Shown: positions 6,486-49,086, numbered from the stretch's first letter. The stretch is DNA of 64,000 nucleotides from an uncultured bacterium (GCA_903821355.1 CAIJKW010000006.1:23898-87897); one strand, 5' to 3'. Notes: generated by a model not told the origin, from the letters alone. Program-made: numbers and translations.

Positions 6486-6775
6486 TTTGCTTTCTGTGTT
6501 TGCTGTTTGCTGTGTTTTCTTCTAACTATTGGTTTTGAGCAGTTTTGTTTATAACTGCATCTTAGAAGATTCATATATATCCTCAAAGATGCAGTCAAAA
6601 ACTACAAAATTTCAATGTTCAATTACAAACACAAGTATAACATACATTAACAGTATGTCAATGGATTCATCAATTTTATTCAGCTTTTAAGCCATAAAAC
6701 CCTTATTCATAGCCACACCTCCCAGTATTTTGCATATTGGCAATCAAATTGGCAAAAGGTTGCCTCGTGTGGGTG

Positions 6776-6875
6776 GTGGTGCAAACCTGCCTTTTGAGAG
6801 ACTTGCGAGTTGCAACGAGCAGAGCCAATTCAGAGCACTGAATTGGCGTTCTCTCAAGAGGCAGGTTTGCACCAC
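6776..6875. repeat. long imperfect hairpin (~26-bp stem) with the conserved core TTGAGAGACTTGCGAGTTGCAACGAGC (copy A)
   Basis: GGTGGTGCAAACCTGCC..TTGAGAGA pairs with TCTCTCAA..GGCAGGTTTGCACCAC. The 27-nt core at 6794-6820 is identical to 15808-15834. There is an inner hairpin CCAATTCAG/CTGAATTGG. It lies in the divergent region upstream of typA. Confidence 0.6.
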
Positions 6876-6948
6876 GACCTTCGAATATAATTCTTTTAAC
6901 AATTTGATTGCCAAAATACCAAAATAGTGTTTAAATGAACTCTCAATT

Positions 6949-8739
6949 ATGCAAATACGTAACATCGCGATTATCGCCCACGTTGACCATGGAAAAACAA
7001 CCATCGTTGATGCCATTATGAAATACACTGGAGCTGTCAAAGATGCAGTATCCATGGACTCTAACGCCATTGAACTTGAGCGAGGTATTACTATATATGC
7101 CAAAAACGCCTCATTTGAGTACAAAGGAACAAAAGTAAACGTTATAGACACACCAGGTCACGCAGACTTTGGCTCAGAGGTTGAGCGTGTTCTTCGTTCT
7201 ATTGACTGTGTTCTACTTATTGTCGATGCACAAGAAGGACCAATGCCACAAACTCGTTTCGTACTTAAAAAATCTCTTGAGCTTGGTCTTAAGCCAATTG
7301 TCGTTCTTAACAAACTAGACAAGCCAGCCGCAAATCCAGCAAGAGTTCACGATGAAATCCTAGAACTATTTATAGAACTTGGTGCTCATGATCATCAATT
7401 AGACTTCCCTATGGTTTATTGTATTGGACGCGAAGGTAAGGCAAAGCTAAATTTGGACGATGAATTTGTAAACCTTGATCCCCTACTCGATACAATTATT
7501 AAAGAAGTTCCTCCTGCAAAAAGTGCGCCAGAAGAAACTCTTGAGGCTCAACCTTTTAACCTCGCATATGACAATTTTCTTGGAAGAATGGCTGTTACTC
7601 GTATTTGGACAGGAACTCTTAAAATGGGTCAAACTTTGTTTATTAAAAAAGATACAGGAGAAACAAGAACCGGAAGAATTACAAAACTTTTTACATTTGA
7701 TGGTCTAGCAAGAAAAGAAGTTAAGGAAGCATACTCAGGTGACGTCGTGATGATTGCAGGACTTTCTGATATTTTTATTGGCGAGACAATAACTGACAAG
7801 GAGGATACTTTGCCTTTGCCCTCAATTAAAATTGACGAACCAACAATTTCTCTTGGTTTTCTTGTTAACGATTCTCCTTTTGCAGGTCGCGAAGGTAAAT
7901 ATGTTACAGGACGTCAAATTAGAGATAGATTAGAAAAAGAACTTGAAGTTAACGTTGGTCTTCATGTCGATTTCGACCAAGCCGACGTTCTTAAAGTTTA
8001 TGGACGTGGAGAATTACATGTCGCAGTTCTACTTGAACAAATGCGTCGTGAAGGATATGAGCTTCAAGTTTCTCAACCTGAGGTTATTATCAAAGAAGTA
8101 AACGGAGAAAAATGTGAGCCATTTGAAGAGGTTGTTATTGATACACCAAGTGAATTCTCAGGAGCTGTTATTGATAAGCTTGGAAGAAGAAAAGGAATTA
8201 TGACTTCAATGAAAGATCATGGTGGTATCACAAGAATGACCTTCGATATTCCTACTCGTGGGCTTTTGGGTTACAGAAGTCAATTCGTTATTGATACGAG
8301 AGGTGAAGGAATTATGTCTTCCCGTTTTGAAGACTTCAGACCTCACGTTGGTACAATTGAAAAAAGAGCTGTTGGATCTATGATTTCAATGGAGAGTGGT
8401 AAGGTTCTACACTTTGCTCTTGGAAACTTACAAGACAGAGGCGTGCTTTATGTTGCCCCAGGAACTGAGGTTTATGCTGGTATGGTTATCGGAAACACAT
8501 CTAAGGGAGAAGAAATGGAAGTTAACCCAACTAAAGGAAAGCAACTTACTAACATGCGTGCATCTGGAACTGATGAGACAGTATATCTTGCCCCTGCACT
8601 TGAAATTACAATTGAACGTGGACTTGAAATCATGTGTGAAGATGAATACTTGGAAATCACACCAACTTCAGCAAGGTTGCGTAAAAAGTTTTTGACAAAG
8701 ACAGGAAGAGAGAGAGCAGAGAAAGGAATCACAAAATAG
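6949..8739 (+). CDS. typA: translational GTPase TypA/BipA
   Basis: 596 aa. G1 motif AHVDHGKTT and G3 motif DTPGHADF. BipA-type domain order along the full length. Confidence 0.9.
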
Positions 8740-38829: not shown

Positions 38830-39342
38830 ATGAGGAAAAACGATAATAATTATGCTTTTATCGATAGTCAAAACTTAAATCTAGGTATAAAAGACTTGGG
38901 TTGGAAATTAGACTTCTATAAATTTAGAAGGTATCTTACTGAAAAGTATTCTGTTACTAAAGCATATATGTTTATTGGATATGTTCCTGGAAATGAAGCT
39001 CTATATACGGCACTACAGAATATGGGTTATATTTGCATATTTAAACCGACTCTTGAGTTAAAGGATGGAAGAGTCAAAGGTAATGTTGATGCTGAATTAG
39101 TACTTCATACAATGATTCAATTAAATAATTTCAATAAAGCGATTGTAGTATCAGGTGACGGAGATTTTTATTGTCTAATTGAGCATTTAATAAAAGAAAA
39201 CAAACTAGAAATCTTACTTGTTCCAGATGAAAGAAGGTATTCTGCGCTACTTAAGAGGCTTAGTTCACCAGATAAAAATATCTTTGAATTTCTTAATAAA
39301 AAACGAGGTCAACTTGAGTATATAAATGAAAAGGCTCTGTAA
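38830..39342 (+). CDS. NYN-domain (LabA/PIN-like) putative ribonuclease
   Basis: N-terminal YAFIDSQNL and …AIVVSGDGDF… are typical acidic residues of the NYN/PIN fold. Confidence 0.7.
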   Translation: MRKNDNNYAFIDSQNLNLGIKDLGWKLDFYKFRRYLTEKYSVTKAYMFIGYVPGNEALYTALQNMGYICIFKPTLELKDGRVKGNVDAELVLHTMIQLNNFNKAIVVSGDGDFYCLIEHLIKENKLEILLVPDERRYSALLKRLSSPDKNIFEFLNKKRGQLEYINEKAL

Positions 39343-39415: not shown

Positions 39416-39479
39416 AAAAATAACCCCATATTCATAGGGCTATTTTCACTGGCTCCCTATCTTGGACGAGTTCAGAACC
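39416..39479 (+). repeat. cassette-boundary repeat R6 (hairpin ACCCCATATTCATAGGG+TATTTTC; ACTGGCTCCCTATCTTGGACGAGTTCAGAAC)
   Basis: ACTGGCTCC is identical to 49010-49018. Confidence 0.7.
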
Positions 39480-39635
39480 ATTAATTGGCAGAACATTAAA
39501 ATTAAATTAGGTAGATTGAGTTTTGTATAAAAATTTAACACCATCCGAAGATGGTGTCATTACCCCGAAGAATTGAACTTCGGTAACGGTTTGTAACCGA
39601 GTGGAGAATACCACTATTTAGACAATTCCCTGCCG

Positions 39636-40265
39636 TTACGGACCTAGAGGAAAAGCGTATGGGCTATCGCACGGTGGCTGATAGGTCAAACAACTGTAAC
39701 TCAACGCTAAAGCAAAAAGAAGCAGAAACGAATACTCGACGGGATGTCGGTATATCTCCGTAATTGTATCAAGAAGTTTTTTCAGTGTCGGTTGAACGAA
39801 CTGCCGTCTCTCAACTGGTGAATAGAACATTCTCCAAGTCGATGAGGCAATAAGTTCTCCTTTTTCTGTTTTTACTTCAATCAGCCAATCACAGTATGCT
39901 CTACTTCTTTTTACTACACGGTGCATTAAGGTGTATGAGTATTGATAGCACATACCGAGATGAAGTGGTTGCTTCAACTCGACAGAACTATAACCCAAGG
40001 CAATTATCTCTGTGTCCTCGGCGAAGCTAAGGATTTTGTGAATGCTTGGCTTTGTCAGAGCAAGAACCAAGTCTCCACAACAAGTCAGACCTTTGAGGTT
40101 AGACCTGTAACGCCAAGCAGTGAATGGGTTGATGTGAACTTTGTTCCAGTCTCCAGTTGCAATTGCAAAAAGGATAAAACGGAAAAAAGACACAACCATC
40201 AACCTAGACTGCCAGCAAAATCCTACGGGGAGATTACAGATGTCAGGTATCTTTTTAAAGTGCAT
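39636..40265 (-). CDS. MaoC-like (hotdog-fold) dehydratase domain protein; GC-rich
   Basis: TGDWNKVHINPFTAWRY matches the GDxNPxHxD…A hotdog signature. About 48% GC. The exact start is uncertain. Confidence 0.5.
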   Translation of the reverse strand: MHFKKIPDICNLPVGFCWQSRLMVVSFFRFILFAIATGDWNKVHINPFTAWRYRSNLKGLTCCGDLVLALTKPSIHKILSFAEDTEIIALGYSSVELKQPLHLGMCYQYSYTLMHRVVKRSRAYCDWLIEVKTEKGELIASSTWRMFYSPVERRQFVQPTLKKLLDTITEIYRHPVEYSFLLLFALALSYSCLTYQPPCDSPYAFPLGP

Positions 40266-40286
40266 TTTCTTAGGGGATTCGGGATG

Positions 40287-40784
40287 CTAAGCCATTGCGT
40301 CAAGGTCGACGTCGTCAGATTTATTTGCGATGTGGCCAAAGACTTCTTCTGTGCCTCCTTTGAGAAGTTGCTGAAGATTTAGCCCACGAATTTGGGCATA
40401 ATGTTCAGCTTGCTCCAAAAACAGAGGTTCTTCCCATCGTTCCGCGGCAGAATATCCAGCCCACCGCATGGGAAGCTCTCCAGCGACAGTCTTTCGTGTG
40501 AACAAATCGCCTCTGTCAGTCCCAACCCTTACCAATTCTGGTGTCTCAAACAAAGCGGAGTACCACTCGTCTTTGACACGAAGACTGATTAGGTCGTCAC
40601 GGCTACGCATGAAGTAGATTTCAATAACCTCATCACCAATACGGACTTCCCCGTGGTTGGTATTAAAGTCAATGCAATCGTAGGTAACTCGTTTTCCGTG
40701 CAGGACTTCAAGGGCTGTGCGCACCATTTCCATTATGGCACAAACATTAGCAGTCAATACAGGCCGTTTCTTTTTATTAAACAT
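40287..40784 (-). CDS. hypothetical protein; GC-rich, co-cassette with the MaoC-like gene
   Basis: 165-aa ORF. No family recognised. Confidence 0.45.
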   Translation of the reverse strand: MFNKKKRPVLTANVCAIMEMVRTALEVLHGKRVTYDCIDFNTNHGEVRIGDEVIEIYFMRSRDDLISLRVKDEWYSALFETPELVRVGTDRGDLFTRKTVAGELPMRWAGYSAAERWEEPLFLEQAEHYAQIRGLNLQQLLKGGTEEVFGHIANKSDDVDLDAMA

Positions 40785-40900
40785 GATGTTTTTCTCCTAG
40801 TTCAAGGTTCAGTTTCGTTGTTGAAGAGATTGCTCTCTTGGAACCACAGTTCAGTAGCTCTGTAAATATTATACATTAGATATAATATAAAGTCAAATTT

Positions 40901-40926
40901 GCTCCTATCTTGGACGAGTTCAGAAC
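40901..40926 (+). repeat. cassette-boundary repeat R7 (GCTCCTATCTTGGACGAGTTCAGAAC)
   Basis: Shares the 17-mer TTGGACGAGTTCAGAAC with R6 and R8. Confidence 0.65.
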
Positions 40927-41059
40927 TTTGGATTGGGTAAATATTAGCAAAGAATTGCGTTGTTTTAATTTTGTATAAACAGAAAACCCACCAACTCGCG
41001 ACGGAGCCAGTGGGTCTTCCGTGTTAAGTTGATGGGTGAATTACGAACGATGAACTGAA

Positions 41060-41686
41060 TCATCGTGTTCGTAAACGATACGCCAACAATGGTGGCATGA
41101 TAATAATCGGTGGCGTAGCCATATACACAGCGTAGGTGGCAATTTCCCAGTTCCATGTTTCCACGGCAAAGAGATTGCATATACCACCAAGACTCCATAA
41201 TGTCCACGCTAACAAGTCTTCTTCCTCGGGTCTTTTCCATGATTTAACAATCGTTGGTATGGCGCCGTTTGCATCGACAGCCAAGCCTCCAAATAGTGTA
41301 ATCAGTGGAAGAAAGCGAGCCCAAGCAGGAAGAACGTGTACTGATTCAATAATCTTGAAAGTTATCCAAGGGACAAAAAGAATCAGACCTATCGCGAGAC
41401 AAATCTTATCTATCTTTGGCCAAGGCTCTTTTTCACGATTTTTGAACAAAGCTACACCCAACACGAATGCTGGACAGATAGCGTAACTGACAGCTACCCA
41501 GACACTAGCATTGGCGCCTGATGTCTTGTAGCTAAGGGCAACTGCCGTTCCGACGACAAGCCAGATAATCCAACTTGTCTTACTTGGCACCGTTGTGTTT
41601 TTGAAGATGGCGATAATGTATGGGAGAAATCCGAGAGTTGCGAACACGCCCGCAATCTTACCCATAAGTTCATGGTCAATTTGCAC
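41060..41686 (-). CDS. hypothetical integral membrane protein (about 6 TM)
   Basis: 208-aa hydrophobic ORF. Confidence 0.5.
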   Translation of the reverse strand: MQIDHELMGKIAGVFATLGFLPYIIAIFKNTTVPSKTSWIIWLVVGTAVALSYKTSGANASVWVAVSYAICPAFVLGVALFKNREKEPWPKIDKICLAIGLILFVPWITFKIIESVHVLPAWARFLPLITLFGGLAVDANGAIPTIVKSWKRPEEEDLLAWTLWSLGGICNLFAVETWNWEIATYAVYMATPPIIIMPPLLAYRLRTR

Positions 41687-41778
41687 GATATTAAGTCCTT
41701 TCTTGTTGGTTGTTTGAATTCGAAATCAATGTGCGTATGCACGAGATAATAACACGTTTTATTAATACCGTCAAATCA

Positions 41779-41803
41779 GCGCCTATTGGACGAGTTCAGA
41801 ACT
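41779..41803 (+). repeat. cassette-boundary repeat R8 (GCGCCTATTGGACGAGTTCAGAAC)
   Basis: Shares TTGGACGAGTTCAGAAC with R6 and R7. Confidence 0.65.
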
Positions 41804-41808
41804 GACTA

Positions 41809-42240
41809 TCATCTATGTTTTTTACCAATAGCGACAATGTTGAATATGTTATTTACCACATACCCAAAAATTCTACCAGCACCCGAATAATCAACTTCAA
41901 GCATTTCTATATCCTCTTGTATTCCATCAAACAACACAGAATAATTACCAGAATTACTGATTGGTTTACATGCAATACATGAAATATGTTGATGCCTAAA
42001 GTGTTTAGTTGGTATTTTTGAGATTTTCTTTAGTTCTTTTGTTAACTTTTTTGCTTCAATATTATCTAGTTTATATATCTCACATTGATTATTATTATAA
42101 ATCTCAAAACTAAAAACCACCCTCCTATTTTCATAGTCTTTAAGAGCGTCGGAAATGGCCACTGTTGGAGAAATGATATCCCGTTCCGCAGTTAGGTTTG
42201 CTATACTACTAGGAAGTTTTTGACTTGAGTTTTCCTGCAT
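41809..42240 (-). CDS. hypothetical protein; candidate toxin partner of the upstream Panacea-domain antitoxin
   Basis: 143 aa. The start overlaps the end of the Panacea gene by 32 bp. No family recognised. The call is contextual. Confidence 0.45.
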   Translation of the reverse strand: MQENSSQKLPSSIANLTAERDIISPTVAISDALKDYENRRVVFSFEIYNNNQCEIYKLDNIEAKKLTKELKKISKIPTKHFRHQHISCIACKPISNSGNYSVLFDGIQEDIEMLEVDYSGAGRIFGYVVNNIFNIVAIGKKHR

Positions 42241-42691
42241 AAAACTTCTTTGCTGTAGTTAAATTTATTATATTATTTGATGACTCTGATGCAGATGTAT
42301 CCTTTCTTGCTTCCTGCCAAGGAAGTTCAGAATGTGAAAGCGCCTCAAGATATTCTGCATTATATTTTCCATAAATAGCCCAGATACTTTCAAGTAATTC
42401 CACTTGTTTTTTAGAAAAACTGAAAGAAACTTTGGTGGTATCCATTTGTATTGGATTGAACTCAAACACCTTAAACCTTCTATATACAGCAGGAATTGCA
42501 GGCCCGTGAATCCATGCTTCAATCCTTTCAGAGAATAATTTTTCACCATTAACAACCAGAGACCAAACTTGCGCATAATAAAGTAGTTTCTGTAACTTTT
42601 TGTTGGTTATTGTTTCTTTTTCTTTATTTGCCTTATCAATAAAATACTCTGCGACAGTCAATGCACTTATTTTTTTAGTGACTGAACTCAT
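42209..42691 (-). CDS. Panacea-domain (DUF4065, SocA/PanA-like) putative antitoxin
   Basis: …KKLQKLLYYAQVWSLVVNGEKLFSERIEAWIHGPAIPAVYRRF… matches the conserved DUF4065 core. Confidence 0.6.
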   Translation of the reverse strand: MSSVTKKISALTVAEYFIDKANKEKETITNKKLQKLLYYAQVWSLVVNGEKLFSERIEAWIHGPAIPAVYRRFKVFEFNPIQMDTTKVSFSFSKKQVELLESIWAIYGKYNAEYLEALSHSELPWQEARKDTSASESSNNIINLTTAKKFYAGKLKSKTS

Positions 42692-42774
42692 GACCTTAGT
42701 ATACTCTTCATAATATTTTTAATCAAGTTAAAATAGTTGATAAGTATTGTATACTAAAGTAAAGTAAAGATACC

Positions 42775-43446
42775 ATGAATAAGAAAGTAAACATTAAAGA
42801 CCCTTATGTTAATTCTAAAGGACTAAAAAAATTATGGAATTATTTTCTGTATTTAGTAGAAAAACCCGACTTTCTTGAAAAAATAGATGGGATACGAACC
42901 AAATATAACATAGATATAAACAATAAATTAGAGGATGACGGCAACCTATCTAATCAAGATTTATTTAAGGACATAATCGCATTGGCTGAAGAATATGAGC
43001 TTGATTCAAGTACTTGGTTGACGTCGATTGCCCCATTGGTGTTGTGGAATATATTAGCAGAACCAGCGTGTACAGATATTTGTATAACCTCTGATAATAT
43101 AAATGACCACGATTTAAGCGAAAATGAGAGACGACACTATCCCGTATCAATTAGAATTAGCCCTTACGCAAGCAAACGTGACATCTTAGACTACATCAAT
43201 AGATTTTATAAATACATCTCCCAAACCCAAGAAAATTACAAGGACGAATCAGTGAAAATTGGTCGCCTTAAGACAAGGAAAGATGCTATAAAAAAGCGTA
43301 ATAGCTTTATATATGAACATAAACATCTGCCAACAAAAGAGATTATGCAACTCGTCGGCAAAGAGTTTGGTCTTAATTCTATTATTGACTGTGCTTATAT
43401 AGGCAAAATAATAGCACTAGAAAACAAAAAAAGAAAAGAAGTGTGA
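42775..43446 (+). CDS. hypothetical protein
   Basis: 223-aa ORF. No family recognised. Confidence 0.45.
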   Translation: MNKKVNIKDPYVNSKGLKKLWNYFLYLVEKPDFLEKIDGIRTKYNIDINNKLEDDGNLSNQDLFKDIIALAEEYELDSSTWLTSIAPLVLWNILAEPACTDICITSDNINDHDLSENERRHYPVSIRISPYASKRDILDYINRFYKYISQTQENYKDESVKIGRLKTRKDAIKKRNSFIYEHKHLPTKEIMQLVGKEFGLNSIIDCAYIGKIIALENKKRKEV

Positions 43447-43674
43447 TACAGATTTTTTCCGTATTACAGAAAATACTTATACTGTATTTTGCATCAATAG
43501 TATTCTGAAGACATCCTTCGGGATATTTTATGCAGGATACTGTTTCAACAAAAAACTTCAAAGTAAACGAGCTACCAGCTAACGACAAACGAAAATTGGT
43601 CGATGCTTTAACTTGGTTAATACAAGAAGATAAAAAGCAAAATCCTGCACTTTATCAGATTAAAAAAGAACAAA

Positions 43675-44793
43675 ATGATAGACACGATATGTCTCTTGAT
43701 ACCAAAAGACAAGATGAATTACCAATCAGGAGTAACCAGCTGGGAGCTTTACTCACAAACGGACCAATACAAGAAATACGTTCGAAATCCAAATAAGGCT
43801 GAAAAAGAAACTGGTAAATATTTCCCTAGATTAACAAGCTATGAACGAAAATTTTCTCAAGAAGCAAACATCCGAATGGAGTTTTCTGTCCCTAAGTTAA
43901 TATATCTAAACAATCTAAATGAGCTTGAAGATAAAGACTTTACAGAGGTAATTGAGATACTCCAAGAAAGACTTAAGACCATGGGAGTAATCGTTACAAA
44001 AGAAGTTCTTGAAAATGCATCAGTAAGTTCGGTCCACTTTTCAAAGAACATATTACTTCAAGACGGATACACTTCTAGCCACTTAATTTCAGAAATGAAT
44101 AAAGTTAATTTACAAAAAAGATTTGATTTTGCAAAGACTAGATTTATGAATGACGGACAAAGCCTCTATGCTCACACCACAGCCCACCAGCTTGTTATAT
44201 ACGACAAGATAGCAGATTTAAACAAAGACAAGAAGCGGGCAATAGATAAGGACCAAACTTTATATCAACAGAATCTATTTACAGAAATAACCAAAGAAGA
44301 TAAATTCCAAGAAATAATACGATTTGAGATTAGGCTGGCTAAAAAGCCTAAAATGAATACGGTCATTGAAGATTTAGGCTATCAAAAGAACCCTACATTC
44401 AAAGACGTATTTAGTACTGAGATGAGTCAAAAAGTTGTTACTAGCTACTGGAAGACACTTATCAAAGAAAGAGGACTTGGAATATTCTCGATAACAATAA
44501 GACCAAAGGATATATTGCAGACTCTATTTCTAGCAGACTTAAAACTAAAGCCAAAACAAGCTGTCTATCTTCTAGGATTATTTACCTTAGCCAAGGACGA
44601 GAATGGTATGAGGCAACTAAGAGAGATTGTCTCAAAGAGGTCTACTGAAGAAACTTGGTATCGAATAGCCAGAGATTTACGACGGTCCAGTGAATTAATA
44701 ACTCAAAACAAGCTACGGGACTGGGTTACTCAAATAGATACAGCGTTAGAAGATTATAAACCATATAAAATTAAAGATTATGAAAACAAATAA
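43675..44793 (+). CDS. hypothetical protein, possibly a replication-initiation-type protein of a mobile element
   Basis: 372 aa. Only weak resemblance to phage/plasmid Rep proteins. Sits in the element between the cassette array and xis. Confidence 0.4.
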   Translation: MIDTICLLIPKDKMNYQSGVTSWELYSQTDQYKKYVRNPNKAEKETGKYFPRLTSYERKFSQEANIRMEFSVPKLIYLNNLNELEDKDFTEVIEILQERLKTMGVIVTKEVLENASVSSVHFSKNILLQDGYTSSHLISEMNKVNLQKRFDFAKTRFMNDGQSLYAHTTAHQLVIYDKIADLNKDKKRAIDKDQTLYQQNLFTEITKEDKFQEIIRFEIRLAKKPKMNTVIEDLGYQKNPTFKDVFSTEMSQKVVTSYWKTLIKERGLGIFSITIRPKDILQTLFLADLKLKPKQAVYLLGLFTLAKDENGMRQLREIVSKRSTEETWYRIARDLRRSSELITQNKLRDWVTQIDTALEDYKPYKIKDYENK

Positions 44794-44977: not shown

Positions 44978-45157
44978 ATGAATAAAGAAAAAGAATTTTA
45001 CAAAGCAGAAGATTTAGCGAAGTCGTTAGAAGTAAACATTATGACGATTTATCGTTATATAAAATCAGGTCGCCTAAAGGCGTACAAGATAGGTCGTGAG
45101 TTTCGTATCGATAAAAAAGAATTCAATGTCTTTCTTAACAGCGTAAAAACAATATAA
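44978..45157 (+). CDS. excisionase/Xis-family helix-turn-helix DNA-binding protein (59 aa; not in the ORF track)
   Basis: MNKEKEFYKAEDLAKSLEVNIMTIYRYIKSGRLKAYKIGREFRIDKKEF… is a typical Xis/MerR-type HTH_17 motif. Immediately upstream of the R-M and recombinase genes. Confidence 0.55.
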   Translation: MNKEKEFYKAEDLAKSLEVNIMTIYRYIKSGRLKAYKIGREFRIDKKEFNVFLNSVKTI

Positions 45158-45162
45158 AAAAA

Positions 45163-46284
45163 ATGGAAGAATGCCTAGTTCATGATTTAATCATGCAAAC
45201 CAAAGAAATTCAGGATGATTTAAAAAGTATATTACTTATTGACCATAATAATAGTTTTAAACTAATACATGAAGACCAATACATAAACGGAATCACAGCT
45301 GATTTTACACTTGTATCAAATAACAAAATTAGAGCGATTGTTGAATGCAAAGCTGGAAATATAGGTATTACTGACTATGTTCGTGGTATAGGGCAAGTCA
45401 TGCAATATGAGTATTTCTATGAAGAAAAAATTACCCCTAAGAGTATTGAGTATGATACTATTTTTAACTCCGTATTGTTGTTTCCCTCGTCTGTTATTAA
45501 AAATAATATATTCAATGTAGGTAGGTTCAAATATCCAAAAAGTACCGTAATTGTTGAATTGAACGATTCAAGTAAGGTACTTAGAAGAATTAATGACTCA
45601 GAACTTGATAAACTAAAGGAAGCGACCGAACAAAACTTGGTAACGATAAGCCAATACTACATAAGAGACAATCGACTATACGAATTATATATTCTTTTAA
45701 ATTATCTAACATTTCTAAAATTCAAGGGCGTTAACGAGGTAAATAGAAATGATTCAGAGGAGCTTTTTTTGAATCATATAGGTACGCAAAATAATGGAAA
45801 TTGGAGAAATGCGTTCATTAGTTTATCCTCTCTTGGTTTTATAGATAGTTATAATATCCCAACCTCTTCAGGAGTTAAGTATGCAAATCTAACTTTTGAA
45901 AAATTTGCTGTGGAAATATATAAGTCATACATAAAACCATATTTTGAAGTTATATTACAATTATTCAATACTGGAGAACAAGTGGACATTAGTAATCAAG
46001 AAATCTGCGACAGAATAAAACAAAGATACCTTGGTAGAGACGTCCTGTTTTTGACAGAGTCTGAAGGTAGATATATTTCTAGCTGGTTAAATATTCTAAG
46101 GGATGATTATGGATGTTTGGAATTTGCCCCAAGAAAAAAGGAGAGAAGAATGACTTATGATTTATTGAATTATAATGAGGAAGGTCTGGAAGCGGCAATT
46201 AAAAGTAAGTCTATCGCTTACGAATATATAAATAAATATTTTACACTATTAAATAACCAAAAAGCATATGTATACAATTTTTGA
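45163..46284 (+). CDS. putative type II restriction endonuclease (by context)
   Basis: 373-aa ORF. Its end overlaps the start of the C5-methyltransferase gene by 17 bp. No conserved family recognised. Confidence 0.45.
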   Translation: MEECLVHDLIMQTKEIQDDLKSILLIDHNNSFKLIHEDQYINGITADFTLVSNNKIRAIVECKAGNIGITDYVRGIGQVMQYEYFYEEKITPKSIEYDTIFNSVLLFPSSVIKNNIFNVGRFKYPKSTVIVELNDSSKVLRRINDSELDKLKEATEQNLVTISQYYIRDNRLYELYILLNYLTFLKFKGVNEVNRNDSEELFLNHIGTQNNGNWRNAFISLSSLGFIDSYNIPTSSGVKYANLTFEKFAVEIYKSYIKPYFEVILQLFNTGEQVDISNQEICDRIKQRYLGRDVLFLTESEGRYISSWLNILRDDYGCLEFAPRKKERRMTYDLLNYNEEGLEAAIKSKSIAYEYINKYFTLLNNQKAYVYNF

Positions 46285-47527
46285 AACTTTTGTCGGTGTG
46301 GGTGGGTCTCATATTGGATTTAAAAATAAAGGGTTTAAAACCATCTACGTGAATGATAACAACGAAGATTGTTTAGCAACGCTTATATTAAACAATCCTG
46401 AATTACAAGGCACAGCATATATAGATAACAGAAGCATTCTTGATGTTTCCACGTCTGATTTATTGAAAAAAATTAAGATGAAGAAAAAATCTCTAGATGT
46501 ATGTTTTGGTGGAATTGTATGTAAAGGTTTTAGTTTGGCTGGAGAAAGGTCCCCCAATGATGAAAGAAGTTATTTTTATCATAAACAAATTGAATTAGTT
46601 TCTGAACTGATGCCAAAAATTAGCATAATTGAAAACGTAAAAGGTATTCTAAATGCAAAAGTTTTATCTGCTAAAACGCCAAAGAAGATAAAAGATGAGG
46701 TTGACTTTATATGGCAAGAGCTTGAAAACTATAAGGGCAAAAAGGCGGATTTGAGGAAGAAAGACAAAATCACAAAATCATTTGAAAGTGAGGGTGAAGT
46801 TTTAAGGCAAAATAAAGAAAAAATGTTAGTTAGACTTGAAAAAGAAGGCTATTTGGTATCAGTACTAGATGATATACATGATATTTATCAAAAATTAGGC
46901 TACAAAGTCAAATATCAGGTACTAAACACAGCATGGTATGGAGCATCTACAAAAAGAGAGCGTGTTATTATCGTTGCAGTAAGAAACGATATAAAAGAAG
47001 AGTTCTTGTTTCCAGTACCTAAATTTTTAGATAAAACGATAACCACCAAACTAACTGGTTTCAACATAGACGGAGTAAAATTTAAAAAGCCTATTTCCAT
47101 TAATGAGGCATTGTCTAAAATAAATTATAAAAAAATAGACCCTGATAATATCGCAATGCAACATTCACCAAAAACGGTTAGTCGTTTTAAGTGTATTCCT
47201 GAAGGAAGAAATATATCTGACATGATGGATGGCGTACCTGATGACCTTAAAATTAGTAAATTCTATTCAAGAGGAAACACAATGAGATTAAATGGAAATT
47301 CACTAAGTCCAACTCTTGTACCTGGACACAGCAATTTTCCTATTCACCCAAAAGAAGATAGGAGTATTACCGTCAGAGAAGCGGCTTGTATAACTGGCTT
47401 CCCTATTGACTACAAGTTCGTCGGTAGCCACACTAAACGTTGTGAGCATGTTGGTAACGCTGTCCCTCCGCCTCTTGCTGAAGCTATAGCTCAAAGTTGT
47501 ATTGATTTGCTAAATAAAATTAAATGA
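46268..47527 (+). CDS. DNA (cytosine-5)-methyltransferase
   Basis: Motif I FVGVGGSHIGF, motif IV GGIVCKGFSLAG (catalytic Cys) and motif VI IENVKGIL. Confidence 0.85.
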   Translation: MYTIFETFVGVGGSHIGFKNKGFKTIYVNDNNEDCLATLILNNPELQGTAYIDNRSILDVSTSDLLKKIKMKKKSLDVCFGGIVCKGFSLAGERSPNDERSYFYHKQIELVSELMPKISIIENVKGILNAKVLSAKTPKKIKDEVDFIWQELENYKGKKADLRKKDKITKSFESEGEVLRQNKEKMLVRLEKEGYLVSVLDDIHDIYQKLGYKVKYQVLNTAWYGASTKRERVIIVAVRNDIKEEFLFPVPKFLDKTITTKLTGFNIDGVKFKKPISINEALSKINYKKIDPDNIAMQHSPKTVSRFKCIPEGRNISDMMDGVPDDLKISKFYSRGNTMRLNGNSLSPTLVPGHSNFPIHPKEDRSITVREAACITGFPIDYKFVGSHTKRCEHVGNAVPPPLAEAIAQSCIDLLNKIK

Positions 47528-49026
47528 AAGCAATAAACGTCTCAAGAGTATCAACGGAAGAACAAAAAGAAGCTGGTAATTCCCTACCTGCTCAAATTGA
47601 GCGTATAAATAAATATTGCAAAAACAAATCATTTGAAATTATTAAATCTTTTAGCTTCGATGAAAGTGCCTATAAAGATAAGCGAGATGAATTTGATAAA
47701 TTTTTAGACTACGTTGAAGAGTTAGTTAAAAAAGAGAAGATAGCAGTTTGTTTTGACAAAGTAGACAGGCTTTCAAGAAGTGTTTTCGACAAGAGAGTTG
47801 CGAGACTTTATGAACTGGCCATGGCTGGAAAAATTGAACTTCATTTTGTTTCTGATAATCAGGTAATAAAAGGTGAGCTTTCTGCAACTGAAAAAGGTGG
47901 GTTTGGTATGAGTCTCGTAATGGCTAGTTACTATTCAAATGCTATTAGTGATAATGTCAAAAGAGCTTTTGAGCAAAAAAGAAGAAGTGGAGAATGGACT
48001 GGGCCAGTGTGTTTAGGTTATTTAAATATAAGCCTAAACGAGGAAAAAAGACTACGCAAAGACATAATAATTGACCCAGAGCGTGGCCACCTTATTCTAA
48101 AAATGTTTGAGCTTTATTCGACAGGATTGTACTCTTTAGAAACCTTGAGATTAAAGATGACAGAACTTGGATTAAGAACTCTCAAGGGAAACATCTTAAC
48201 AAAAAGCGGAGTTGATAACATAATAAGAAACAGCTTTTATTGTGGAATAGCTATTTCGAGAAAATATGGTGCATACCCACACAACTACCCTCGTCTAATA
48301 ACTAAGGATTTATTTGATAGATGTAAGGAAATTCAAATTGGACGATTCAATAACATACATAAGGAAGTCTCAAAAGACTTCATCTTTAAAGGTTTACTAA
48401 AATGCCAGAATTGCGGTTGTGCAATAACAGCTGAGCAACACGAGGGCAAGCCCATATACTATTCCTGTACAAATGGTAAACATATATGCAAGAGATTATA
48501 TATCAATGAGAAAGACCTTCTGAAGCCCATATACGAGGTCCTAGAGCGTTTTGAGAGCATTACAGAGGAGGTGGCTAATGATTTAGTAAGTGAGCTAAGA
48601 AAGAACACTGAATCAGAAATTGTGTATCATAAAGCACAAATTAATCGTATAAGAATTAATTACGATAACCTTTTAGCAAAACAAGAAAGACTGCTTGAAG
48701 CTTTTTTGGACCAGAGTATTACTAAGAGCATCTATGACAAGAAACACGAAGAGCAACAAGACCAAATACAGACCTTAGAAATTGAAATGTCTGAACACAA
48801 TAAAGCAGACTATGATTACCAAACTACCGTTGCCACAGTACTTTCTGTAGCAAGAAGAGCAAAGAGCATATTTGAAAATAGTTCTGAAGTTGCAGGAAAA
48901 AGAGCATTTTTGAGCATGATACTTCAGAACCCTGTCATAAACGAAAAAAAGCTAGTGTTTACAATAGCTTCTCCGTTCAATCTAGTATTAGAATTAGCTG
49001 ACCGTCCAAACTGGCTCCGCGGGTAG
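47524..49026 (+). CDS. large serine recombinase (resolvase/invertase N-domain + recombinase domain + zinc ribbon)
   Basis: Catalytic region INVSRVSTEEQ…DRLSRS. Cys cluster CQNCGC…CTNGKHIC. Coiled-coil C-terminus. Its last 15 nt overlap the 3' end of tRNA-Asn on the opposite strand. Confidence 0.85.
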   Translation: MKAINVSRVSTEEQKEAGNSLPAQIERINKYCKNKSFEIIKSFSFDESAYKDKRDEFDKFLDYVEELVKKEKIAVCFDKVDRLSRSVFDKRVARLYELAMAGKIELHFVSDNQVIKGELSATEKGGFGMSLVMASYYSNAISDNVKRAFEQKRRSGEWTGPVCLGYLNISLNEEKRLRKDIIIDPERGHLILKMFELYSTGLYSLETLRLKMTELGLRTLKGNILTKSGVDNIIRNSFYCGIAISRKYGAYPHNYPRLITKDLFDRCKEIQIGRFNNIHKEVSKDFIFKGLLKCQNCGCAITAEQHEGKPIYYSCTNGKHICKRLYINEKDLLKPIYEVLERFESITEEVANDLVSELRKNTESEIVYHKAQINRIRINYDNLLAKQERLLEAFLDQSITKSIYDKKHEEQQDQIQTLEIEMSEHNKADYDYQTTVATVLSVARRAKSIFENSSEVAGKRAFLSMILQNPVINEKKLVFTIASPFNLVLELADRPNWLRG

Positions 49027-49086
49027 GATTCGAACCTACGACCAATTCGTTAACAGCGAACTGCTCTACCACTGAGCTACCGCGGA
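49012..49086 (-). tRNA. tRNA-Asn (anticodon GUU), CCA encoded
   Basis: Manual fold: acceptor UCCGCGG/CCGCGGA; D-arm GCUC-AGUGGU-AGAGC; anticodon stem GUUCG/CGAAU with loop CUGUUAA; T-arm GGUUCGAAUCC; discriminator G + CCA. Confidence 0.85.

Follow-up and report, generated by a model that had tools for sequence, protein, structure and literature searches.

The window analysed here is a stretch of 64,000 nucleotides (nt) from an uncultured bacterium (GCA_903821355.1 CAIJKW010000006.1:23898-87897), and all coordinates below are counted from its start. At 41809-42691 it carries two overlapping open reading frames (ORFs), both on the minus strand, that encode a Panacea-domain protein and a smaller partner; we refer to the genes as panA (putative antitoxin) and panT (putative toxin), and to the pair as panAT. 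A preliminary description of this DNA had pointed to the two overlapping ORFs and to a DUF4065/Panacea core in the longer product, and both observations are confirmed. The features of the pair and its immediate upstream region are as follows (aa, amino acids).

42209-42691, minus strand: panA, putative antitoxin; 160 aa, ATG start, a standalone Panacea/SocA-domain protein
41809-42240, minus strand: panT, putative toxin; 143 aa, ATG start, downstream of panA
42209-42240, minus strand: overlap of the end of panA with the start of panT, 32 nt
42692-42774: AT-rich region between panA and a divergent 223-aa gene, 83 nt

Because the two genes overlap by 32 nt, we infer that their translation is coupled. 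The AT-rich region upstream of panA probably contains the panAT promoter, a function suggested by a sigma-70-like site (TTGATT-17-TATACT) on the minus strand at 42726-42698, although the count of such sites in the region is no higher than the shuffled expectation; an inverted pair, AGTATAC...GTATACT, was also seen by eye in the same region. An Rfam search of the locus (E≤1) returned no RNA antitoxin and no other known RNA, and PADLOC matched no known defence system there.

The assignment of PanA is robust at the level of the domain. Its residues 33-126 match Pfam PF13274 (SocA_Panacea) with E=6.7e-21 and 75.8 bits against a cut-off of 25.7, the match spans profile positions 1-113 of 113, and the protein contains the KLQKLLYYAQ...HGPAIP signature. 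Likewise, residues 11-155 align with the NCBIfam SocA antitoxin model NF047745 (E=1.2e-20), but the 73.9 bits obtained lie well below the equivalog cut-off of 190 bits. PanA also matches phrog_1281 (E=5.9e-46). It has no N-terminal helix-turn-helix (HTH) or other extra N-terminal domain and is hence a “standalone” Panacea protein, and its C-terminal tail (approximately residues 127-160, ...LPWQEAR...AKKFYAGKL) is conserved in an alignment of 13 orthologues.

Co-conservation and family relationships of the pair

The preliminary description had proposed that the 143-aa ORF is the partner of the Panacea gene and had named a lack of co-conservation as the outcome that would count against this; the distribution of the pair shows the reverse. 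We inspected 25 metagenomic or genomic loci (L001-L025) that hold close or distant PanT members, and a Panacea gene lies immediately upstream of panT, on the same strand, in every one that has upstream DNA (L001-L010, L012-L016 and L018-L025); PanA goes undetected only in L011 and L017, both of which are cut at that edge. In most loci panA and panT overlap by 17-41 nt, with a short gap in L020 (3 nt) and in L022/L023. The linkage to Panacea persists for PanT relatives with no more than 28-33% identity to the window protein (P0100, P0120, P0150 and P0183) and in neighbourhoods that share no other genes, and the pairwise identities of PanA and of PanT rise together (r=0.94 across 78 locus pairs). 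The same architecture is found in Saccharibacteria, Nomurabacteria, Parcubacteria and Kaiserbacteria as well as in other metagenomic contigs. With its 32-nt overlap and an architecture kept amid differing flanking genes, the pair conforms to the two-gene PanAT systems of Kurata et al. 2022. In addition, a protein from a Candidatus Anoxychlamydiales metagenome-assembled genome (MAG), P0185 (NGX32563.1), combines an N-terminal Panacea domain and a C-terminal PanT-family domain in a single chain of 306 aa. This fusion resembles fused toxin–antitoxin defence proteins such as CapRel.

PanT has 48 close homologues, all of approximately 143 aa and 55-100% identical; because Met1 and the N-terminus are conserved among them, the panT start codon, and with it the overlap, is genuine. 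A profile search against 1.84 billion cluster representatives (a 50%-identity library) found 276 relatives at E≤0.001, 124 of them at E≤1e-10. The close relatives that are assigned to genomes all belong to the Patescibacteria, or Candidate Phyla Radiation (CPR), specifically to Saccharibacteria, Nomurabacteria, Parcubacteria and Kaiserbacteria, and one further protein carries a Woesearchaeota MAG label. A search for homologous proteins with the wide PanT alignment returned nothing new and no named proteins, and a tblastn search of plasmids and phages with one distant family member gave no match.

The 143-aa protein had been described as belonging to no recognisable family, and this stands with respect to Pfam and PADLOC, neither of which gives a match, but not with respect to other family models. 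PanT matches the NCBIfam model NF046006 (MAG6450_fam) over profile positions 3-100 of 103 with E=3.5e-6; the 27.5 bits fall below the cut-off of 40, making it a distant relative and not a member by the NCBI rule. It also matches phrog_8366 (E=5.8e-6), for which no function is annotated, and 57 of 150 PanT relatives match NF046006, again below the cut-off. On a plasmid of Pontibacter sp. G13 (NZ_CP134697.1), the ORF that immediately follows a “SocA domain-containing” gene scores 55.8 bits with NF046006, above the cut-off, and matches the PanT-family profile at 43.6 bits (E=2.2e-13); by sequence, it bridges the two families. This ORF (L027 1963-2451, approximately 6545-7033 of NZ_CP134697.1) is missing from the PLSDB gene table and looks like an unlisted PanT gene.

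The name of NF046006 derives from a locus tag of Mycoplasma agalactiae, where the only label in the literature is “conserved hypothetical protein”. Kurata et al. 2022 (PMC8832971; PNAS 119:e2102212119) sorted the predicted partners of Panacea into 88 clusters, and the cluster that heads their table, T1, includes an M. agalactiae pair. The T1 entries inspected in that table have a standalone PanA (“noNTD”), with the antitoxin gene leading and the two genes closely spaced or slightly overlapping; in one of them, WP_004293873.1/WP_004293874.1, the gap is exactly -32 (PMC8832971). The one T1 toxin assayed, WP_074844970.1 of Clostridium cadaveris, carries the label “mRNase” and proved toxic to Escherichia coli (PMC8832971). 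WP_004293874.1, which is located on a Parabacteroides plasmid, gives a weak match to the PanT-family profile that is split into two collinear pieces and takes in the GR...H motif (16.8 bits; E=4e-5 in a set of ORFs from five loci), and it matches NF046006 weakly as well (19.8 bits, E=8.8e-4). The link of the window PanT to T1, which rests on these weak scores and on the family name, is probable. Hence, the candidacy of the 143-aa protein as an uncharacterised, new toxin does not survive: PanT is a divergent CPR member of a catalogued MAG6450/T1-like family with a RelE/ParE-like predicted fold, and the panAT pair reveals no new toxin class.

Predicted fold of PanT and its proposed action

An AlphaFold run restricted to the 28 close homologues yielded no usable model, its predicted local distance difference test score (pLDDT) being 43.6, and was superseded by a run on 150 sequences. 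With this wider-family alignment, AlphaFold2 modelled PanT at a pLDDT of 91 and a predicted template modelling (TM) score of 0.75, with 107 residues at 90 or above. From residue 40 onward the model runs through a strand, a long helix, a short helix, a strand, a helix and three antiparallel strands, that is, beta-alpha-alpha-beta-alpha-beta-beta-beta. The elements that define the RelE/ParE fold (an N-terminal strand, two helices and a three-stranded antiparallel sheet) are all found in it. The predicted RelE/ParE-like core occupies residues ~41-143 and is preceded by an extension of about 40 aa that is modelled less confidently, in particular over roughly its first 30 residues. The extension carries a motif, [IL]-P-x-x-V-A at approximately residues 23-28 (local pLDDT 68-79), that is kept across the wider family. 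It may be a binding site for PanA or an autoinhibitory segment.

The preliminary description had suggested structure prediction and a Foldseek search for membrane-disrupting or nuclease folds. In a search of the PanT model against 350,542 Protein Data Bank (PDB) chains, toxins of the RelE superfamily dominate the ranking, but no match reaches E≤0.001. The archaeal RelE 1wmi_A matches with E=6.7e-3, a probability of 1.00 and a target-normalised TM of 0.62, the RelE of M. jannaschii (3bpq_B) has a TM of 0.63, and most of the remaining top 46 places are taken by YafQ, HigB, YoeB, Helicobacter HP0892/HP0894, RelK, ParE2 and Cami1, the last of which is a RelE-like ribosome-dependent nuclease. PanT is thus RelE/ParE-like by its modelled fold and is not a demonstrated member by sequence. 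A pairing of Panacea with RelE-fold toxins is already established at the level of prediction, because members of PanT clusters T14, T28 and T60 have HHpred matches of 89-99.7% to HigB-2, YoeB, ParE or RelE and one T59 member bears the annotation RelE/ParE family toxin (PMC8832971).

Five residues of PanT are nearly invariant in the wider family: C53 (145/150), Y100 (147/150), E115 (142/150), R123 (149/150) and H142 (149/149). D117, by comparison, is invariant only among the close homologues. R123 opens strand beta3 (GRIFGY, compared with YRLVYQ in RelE and HRLVYA in YoeB), and H142 comes after the last strand (IVAIGKKH, compared with ISVGKR and AACRYH, respectively). An hhalign comparison with a RelE alignment, although not significant, is in register over 64 columns and places E115 and D117 on K52 and K54, R123 on R61, and H142 on R81, positions known to be catalytic in RelE. 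The PanT family is also basic, with a median pI of 9.1. What the analysis provides is a high-confidence model with E115, R123, H142, Y100 and C53 as candidate catalytic residues, alongside the apparent bridge between NF046006 and T1.

From these observations, we think it fairly likely that panAT is a type II toxin–antitoxin module in which PanT is a RelE-like ribosome-dependent mRNase that is neutralised through direct binding by a standalone Panacea protein, and that it serves the maintenance of its element and perhaps phage defence. In this scheme, panA and panT would be co-transcribed, with the 32-nt overlap coupling their translation. Free PanT would cleave A-site mRNA on the ribosome, in the manner of RelE, YoeB and YafQ, and so halt translation; PanA would prevent this by binding PanT directly, with either the globular domain or the conserved C-terminal tail making the contact. 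The pair sits at the far end of a serine-recombinase integrative element of ~7 kb that lies next to a tRNA-Asn gene in a Patescibacteria genome, and there the module would probably stabilise the element through post-segregational killing and might also serve in abortive-infection defence.

A number of observations weigh against such an mRNase module. At the level of structure, the Foldseek matches superpose with a root-mean-square deviation of 4-6 Å, and PanT has 40 extra N-terminal residues and an inserted helix relative to them. At the level of sequence, the hhalign comparison mentioned above, made with 37 RelE sequences (Neff 2), has a probability of 0.6%, and comparisons with single YoeB, YafQ, RelE and HigB sequences (that of RelE being confirmed by 99-100% database matches) have probabilities of 0.2-2.6%. 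No Pfam RelE/ParE family (PF05016, PF05015, PF06769 or PF05973) matches PanT, only one of its 150 relatives matches PF05973 Gp49 (E=0.0066), and the only PDB sequence matched by the PanT-family profile is the C-terminal DNA-binding domain of T4 MotA (E=0.009). PanA, for its part, is basic (pI 9.4), whereas classical antitoxins are labile and acidic; it is at least as conserved as PanT everywhere it was compared (L001-L024), and at long range it retains 33-50% identity against 28-33% for PanT. Furthermore, in the assays of Kurata et al. (PMC8832971), the PanA of the tested T1 pair did not rescue E. coli from its cognate toxin, and 8 of the 25 PanTs assayed were not toxic in this host. As an observation in its own right, an antitoxin more conserved than its toxin is the reverse of the usual toxin–antitoxin pattern.

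The points concerning PanA bear most directly on a reading in which the toxin is still RelE-fold but the Panacea protein does more than sequester it, acting either as a SocA-like proteolytic adaptor (following type VI logic) or as a phage sensor that activates PanT in the manner of CapRel. The near-full-length alignment of PanA (11-155) with the NCBIfam SocA model, its greater conservation at long range, the single-chain Panacea–PanT fusion, the failed neutralisation of the tested T1 toxin by its cognate PanA, and the relatives that both proteins have in phage protein families are all consistent with it, and a sensory role for Panacea has been proposed by Ernits et al. 2023. However, the SocA match lies far under the equivalog cut-off, standalone Panacea antitoxins neutralise directly according to Ernits et al. 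2023, PADLOC gives no defence-system match, and no trigger or protease partner is evident at the locus; we regard this reading as having a small, though appreciable, chance of being correct. A more specific form of it is conceivable because the family is found only beside or fused with Panacea, possesses a distinctive invariant Cys/Tyr/Glu/Arg/His set together with an N-terminal extension, and accompanies a more slowly evolving Panacea protein: the MAG6450/T1-like module, here on an integrative element of an ultra-small CPR bacterium, might be no ordinary RelE-type toxin with its antitoxin but a sensor–effector switch of the CapRel kind, in which Panacea detects a cue from a phage or mobile element and unleashes an effector that cleaves during translation. 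We consider this speculation unlikely to hold.

The two other readings change the action of PanT itself. ParE and RelE share one fold, ParE2 chains (5cw7_F and 5czf_C) are among the Foldseek matches, and ParE-domain PanTs were found through the CDD by Kurata et al. (PMC8832971), so that PanT might act as a DNA gyrase poison that does not cleave mRNA. This is decidedly improbable: the ParE matches rank only 44-46, with a probability of ~0.2, below RelE, YafQ, YoeB and HigB; the near-invariant Glu/Arg/His/Tyr set, aligned with RelE catalytic positions, would suit an enzyme better than a gyrase binder; and the T1 representative has “mRNase” as its label (PMC8832971). That PanT might instead be non-toxic, for example an accessory or DNA-binding partner of Panacea such as a MotA-like “double-wing” regulator of the mobile element, is suggested by the MotA match and by the PanTs that showed no toxicity, and it is the reading to which we give least credence. 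The MotA match is marginal, and the 50 best structural matches are RelE-type toxins, with no MotA among them; a strict pairing of two genes, one of them for an antitoxin domain, that persists in unrelated contexts is the hallmark of toxin–antitoxin systems, and the tested T1 member is toxic. The MotA alignment itself covers 68 columns (profile positions 57-124) and includes the ...NMRIFGY stretch.

The integrative element and its repeats

Beyond panAT, the locus continues into the other genes of its mobile element, identified with Pfam and with ARAGORN/Rfam and listed here with the repeat copy that lies nearest to panT.

41786-41802, plus strand: 17-nt repeat TTGGACGAGTTCAGAAC, third copy; its end lies 6 nt past the panT stop codon
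42775-49086, plus strand: rest of the panAT-carrying element (Pfam, ARAGORN/Rfam)
beginning at 42775, plus strand: 223-aa gene, divergent from panA (element gene)
43530-43796, plus strand: 88-aa gene (element gene)
43675-44793, plus strand: 372-aa gene (element gene)
44978-45157, plus strand: HTH_17 excisionase-like gene (Pfam)
between the HTH_17 gene and the methyltransferase, plus strand: 373-aa gene (element gene)
46268-47527, plus strand: C5 cytosine methyltransferase (Pfam)
47524-49026, plus strand: large serine recombinase, 500 aa, with Resolvase, Recombinase and Zn-ribbon domains
49012-49086, minus strand: tRNA-Asn(GTT) (ARAGORN/Rfam)

The last 15 nt of the tRNA-Asn gene, at its 3′ end, fall inside the recombinase ORF. 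Across the element from panAT to the recombinase the G+C content (GC) is 0.30-0.36, compared with 0.42-0.43 in the segments to the left, and panAT lies at the left end of this low-GC block. The 223-aa, 372-aa and HTH_17 genes accompany panAT in varying combinations in four other loci (L008, L012, L015 and L018), one of which, L012, also has the 88-aa gene and the methyltransferase beside it; in other loci panAT stands among unrelated genes. With a shared backbone in some loci and unrelated genes elsewhere, panAT behaves as a mobile toxin–antitoxin module. Its vehicle here is an integrative element with a serine recombinase at a tRNA gene, and its hosts have tiny genomes in which each retained gene is informative.

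Two of the element genes deserve a remark. The 88-aa and 372-aa ORFs share 122 nt at the 5′ end of the latter, and their counterparts overlap in L012 too; the 372-aa gene may in fact begin further downstream. In L004 and L008, the short gene in the corresponding place has a SpoVG domain.

The preliminary description had placed the pair in its own repeat-bounded cassette, and this is half right: TTGGACGAGTTCAGAAC flanks the pair on the panT side only, and with no copy to the right of panA, the pair itself is not enclosed by repeats. The repeat contains the palindrome GTTCAGAAC and occurs three times in direct orientation (39462-39478, 40910-40926 and 41786-41802, with 0.08 occurrences expected by chance), each copy lying just 3′ of minus-strand genes and the first two extending to 76 nt. 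The copies bound two neighbouring segments, 39462-40910 and 40910-41786, with the GC of 0.42-0.43 given above; their ORFs encode 209, 165 and 208 aa, and the 208-aa product looks membrane-like from its sequence. A 15-nt core of the repeat is also found at L018 3806-3820, 4 nt after the panT stop codon, in a Kaiserbacteria locus whose PanT is 53% identical to that of the window. Because this core and the third copy in the window both lie just past a panT stop codon, TTGGACGAGTTCAGAAC is probably an element end or recombination site, and its copies were possibly left by successive insertions. Of two other identities considered for the repeat, the first is rejected and the second is not supported. 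As an integron attC site it does not fit the R'/R'' consensus, and there is no tyrosine integrase among the element genes scanned; as a tRNA fragment it is called by neither ARAGORN nor Rfam, and no long second copy of the 3′ end of tRNA-Asn is present in the window.

A 9-mer at the 3′ end of the tRNA-Asn gene, ACTGGCTCC, recurs at 39447-39455, immediately left of the first repeat copy; no longer duplicate of that end is present within the window. The two copies of the 9-mer would define an island of ~9.6 kb. Just left of this island, at 38830-39342, is a gene for an NYN-domain protein (a predicted RNase), and a close homologue of it (E=3e-47) is found at L022 3261-3734, approximately 2 kb from a distant panAT pair on an unrelated soil-metagenome contig.

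Comparison with known systems

It is worth considering how the window pair compares with the systems that it most resembles. With the type VI SocAB system of Caulobacter it shares the Panacea/SocA domain over nearly the full length of PanA, although PanA is far below the SocA equivalog cut-off and the partners differ: PanT is RelE-like in its predicted fold, whereas SocB, a replication-clamp inhibitor, is a different protein. Kurata et al. 2022 put SocB in cluster T10 (PMC8832971).

The resemblance to RelE, YoeB, YafQ and HigB lies in the predicted order of strands and helices, in the basic charge, and in the position of the gene, downstream of and overlapping that of the antitoxin. The Arg at the start of beta3 and the His at the C-terminal end of beta4 match R61/R81 of RelE or R65/H83 of YoeB. 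In contrast to the RelE family, PanT has no significant sequence or profile similarity to these proteins, is ~50 residues longer by virtue of the N-terminal extension and an inserted “NSGNY..LF” helix, has a near-invariant Cys53 with no known counterpart, and is paired with Panacea and not with RelB, YefM, DinJ or HigA.

The closest likeness is to cluster T1, still without a mechanism, and to NF046006. The standalone PanA, the antitoxin gene first and the overlap are shared with the T1 entries inspected, down to the -32 gap of WP_004293873.1/WP_004293874.1 (PMC8832971). The examined part of the Kurata table lists no Patescibacteria or Parcubacteria, and its only CPR entries are Saccharibacteria in cluster T14 (PMC8832971). 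The window PanT, by comparison with T1 and NF046006, has the ~40-aa N-terminal extension and falls within a compact Patescibacteria subgroup (48 proteins, 55-100% identical), and it probably adds a CPR branch to what is apparently the largest cluster of Panacea-associated toxins.

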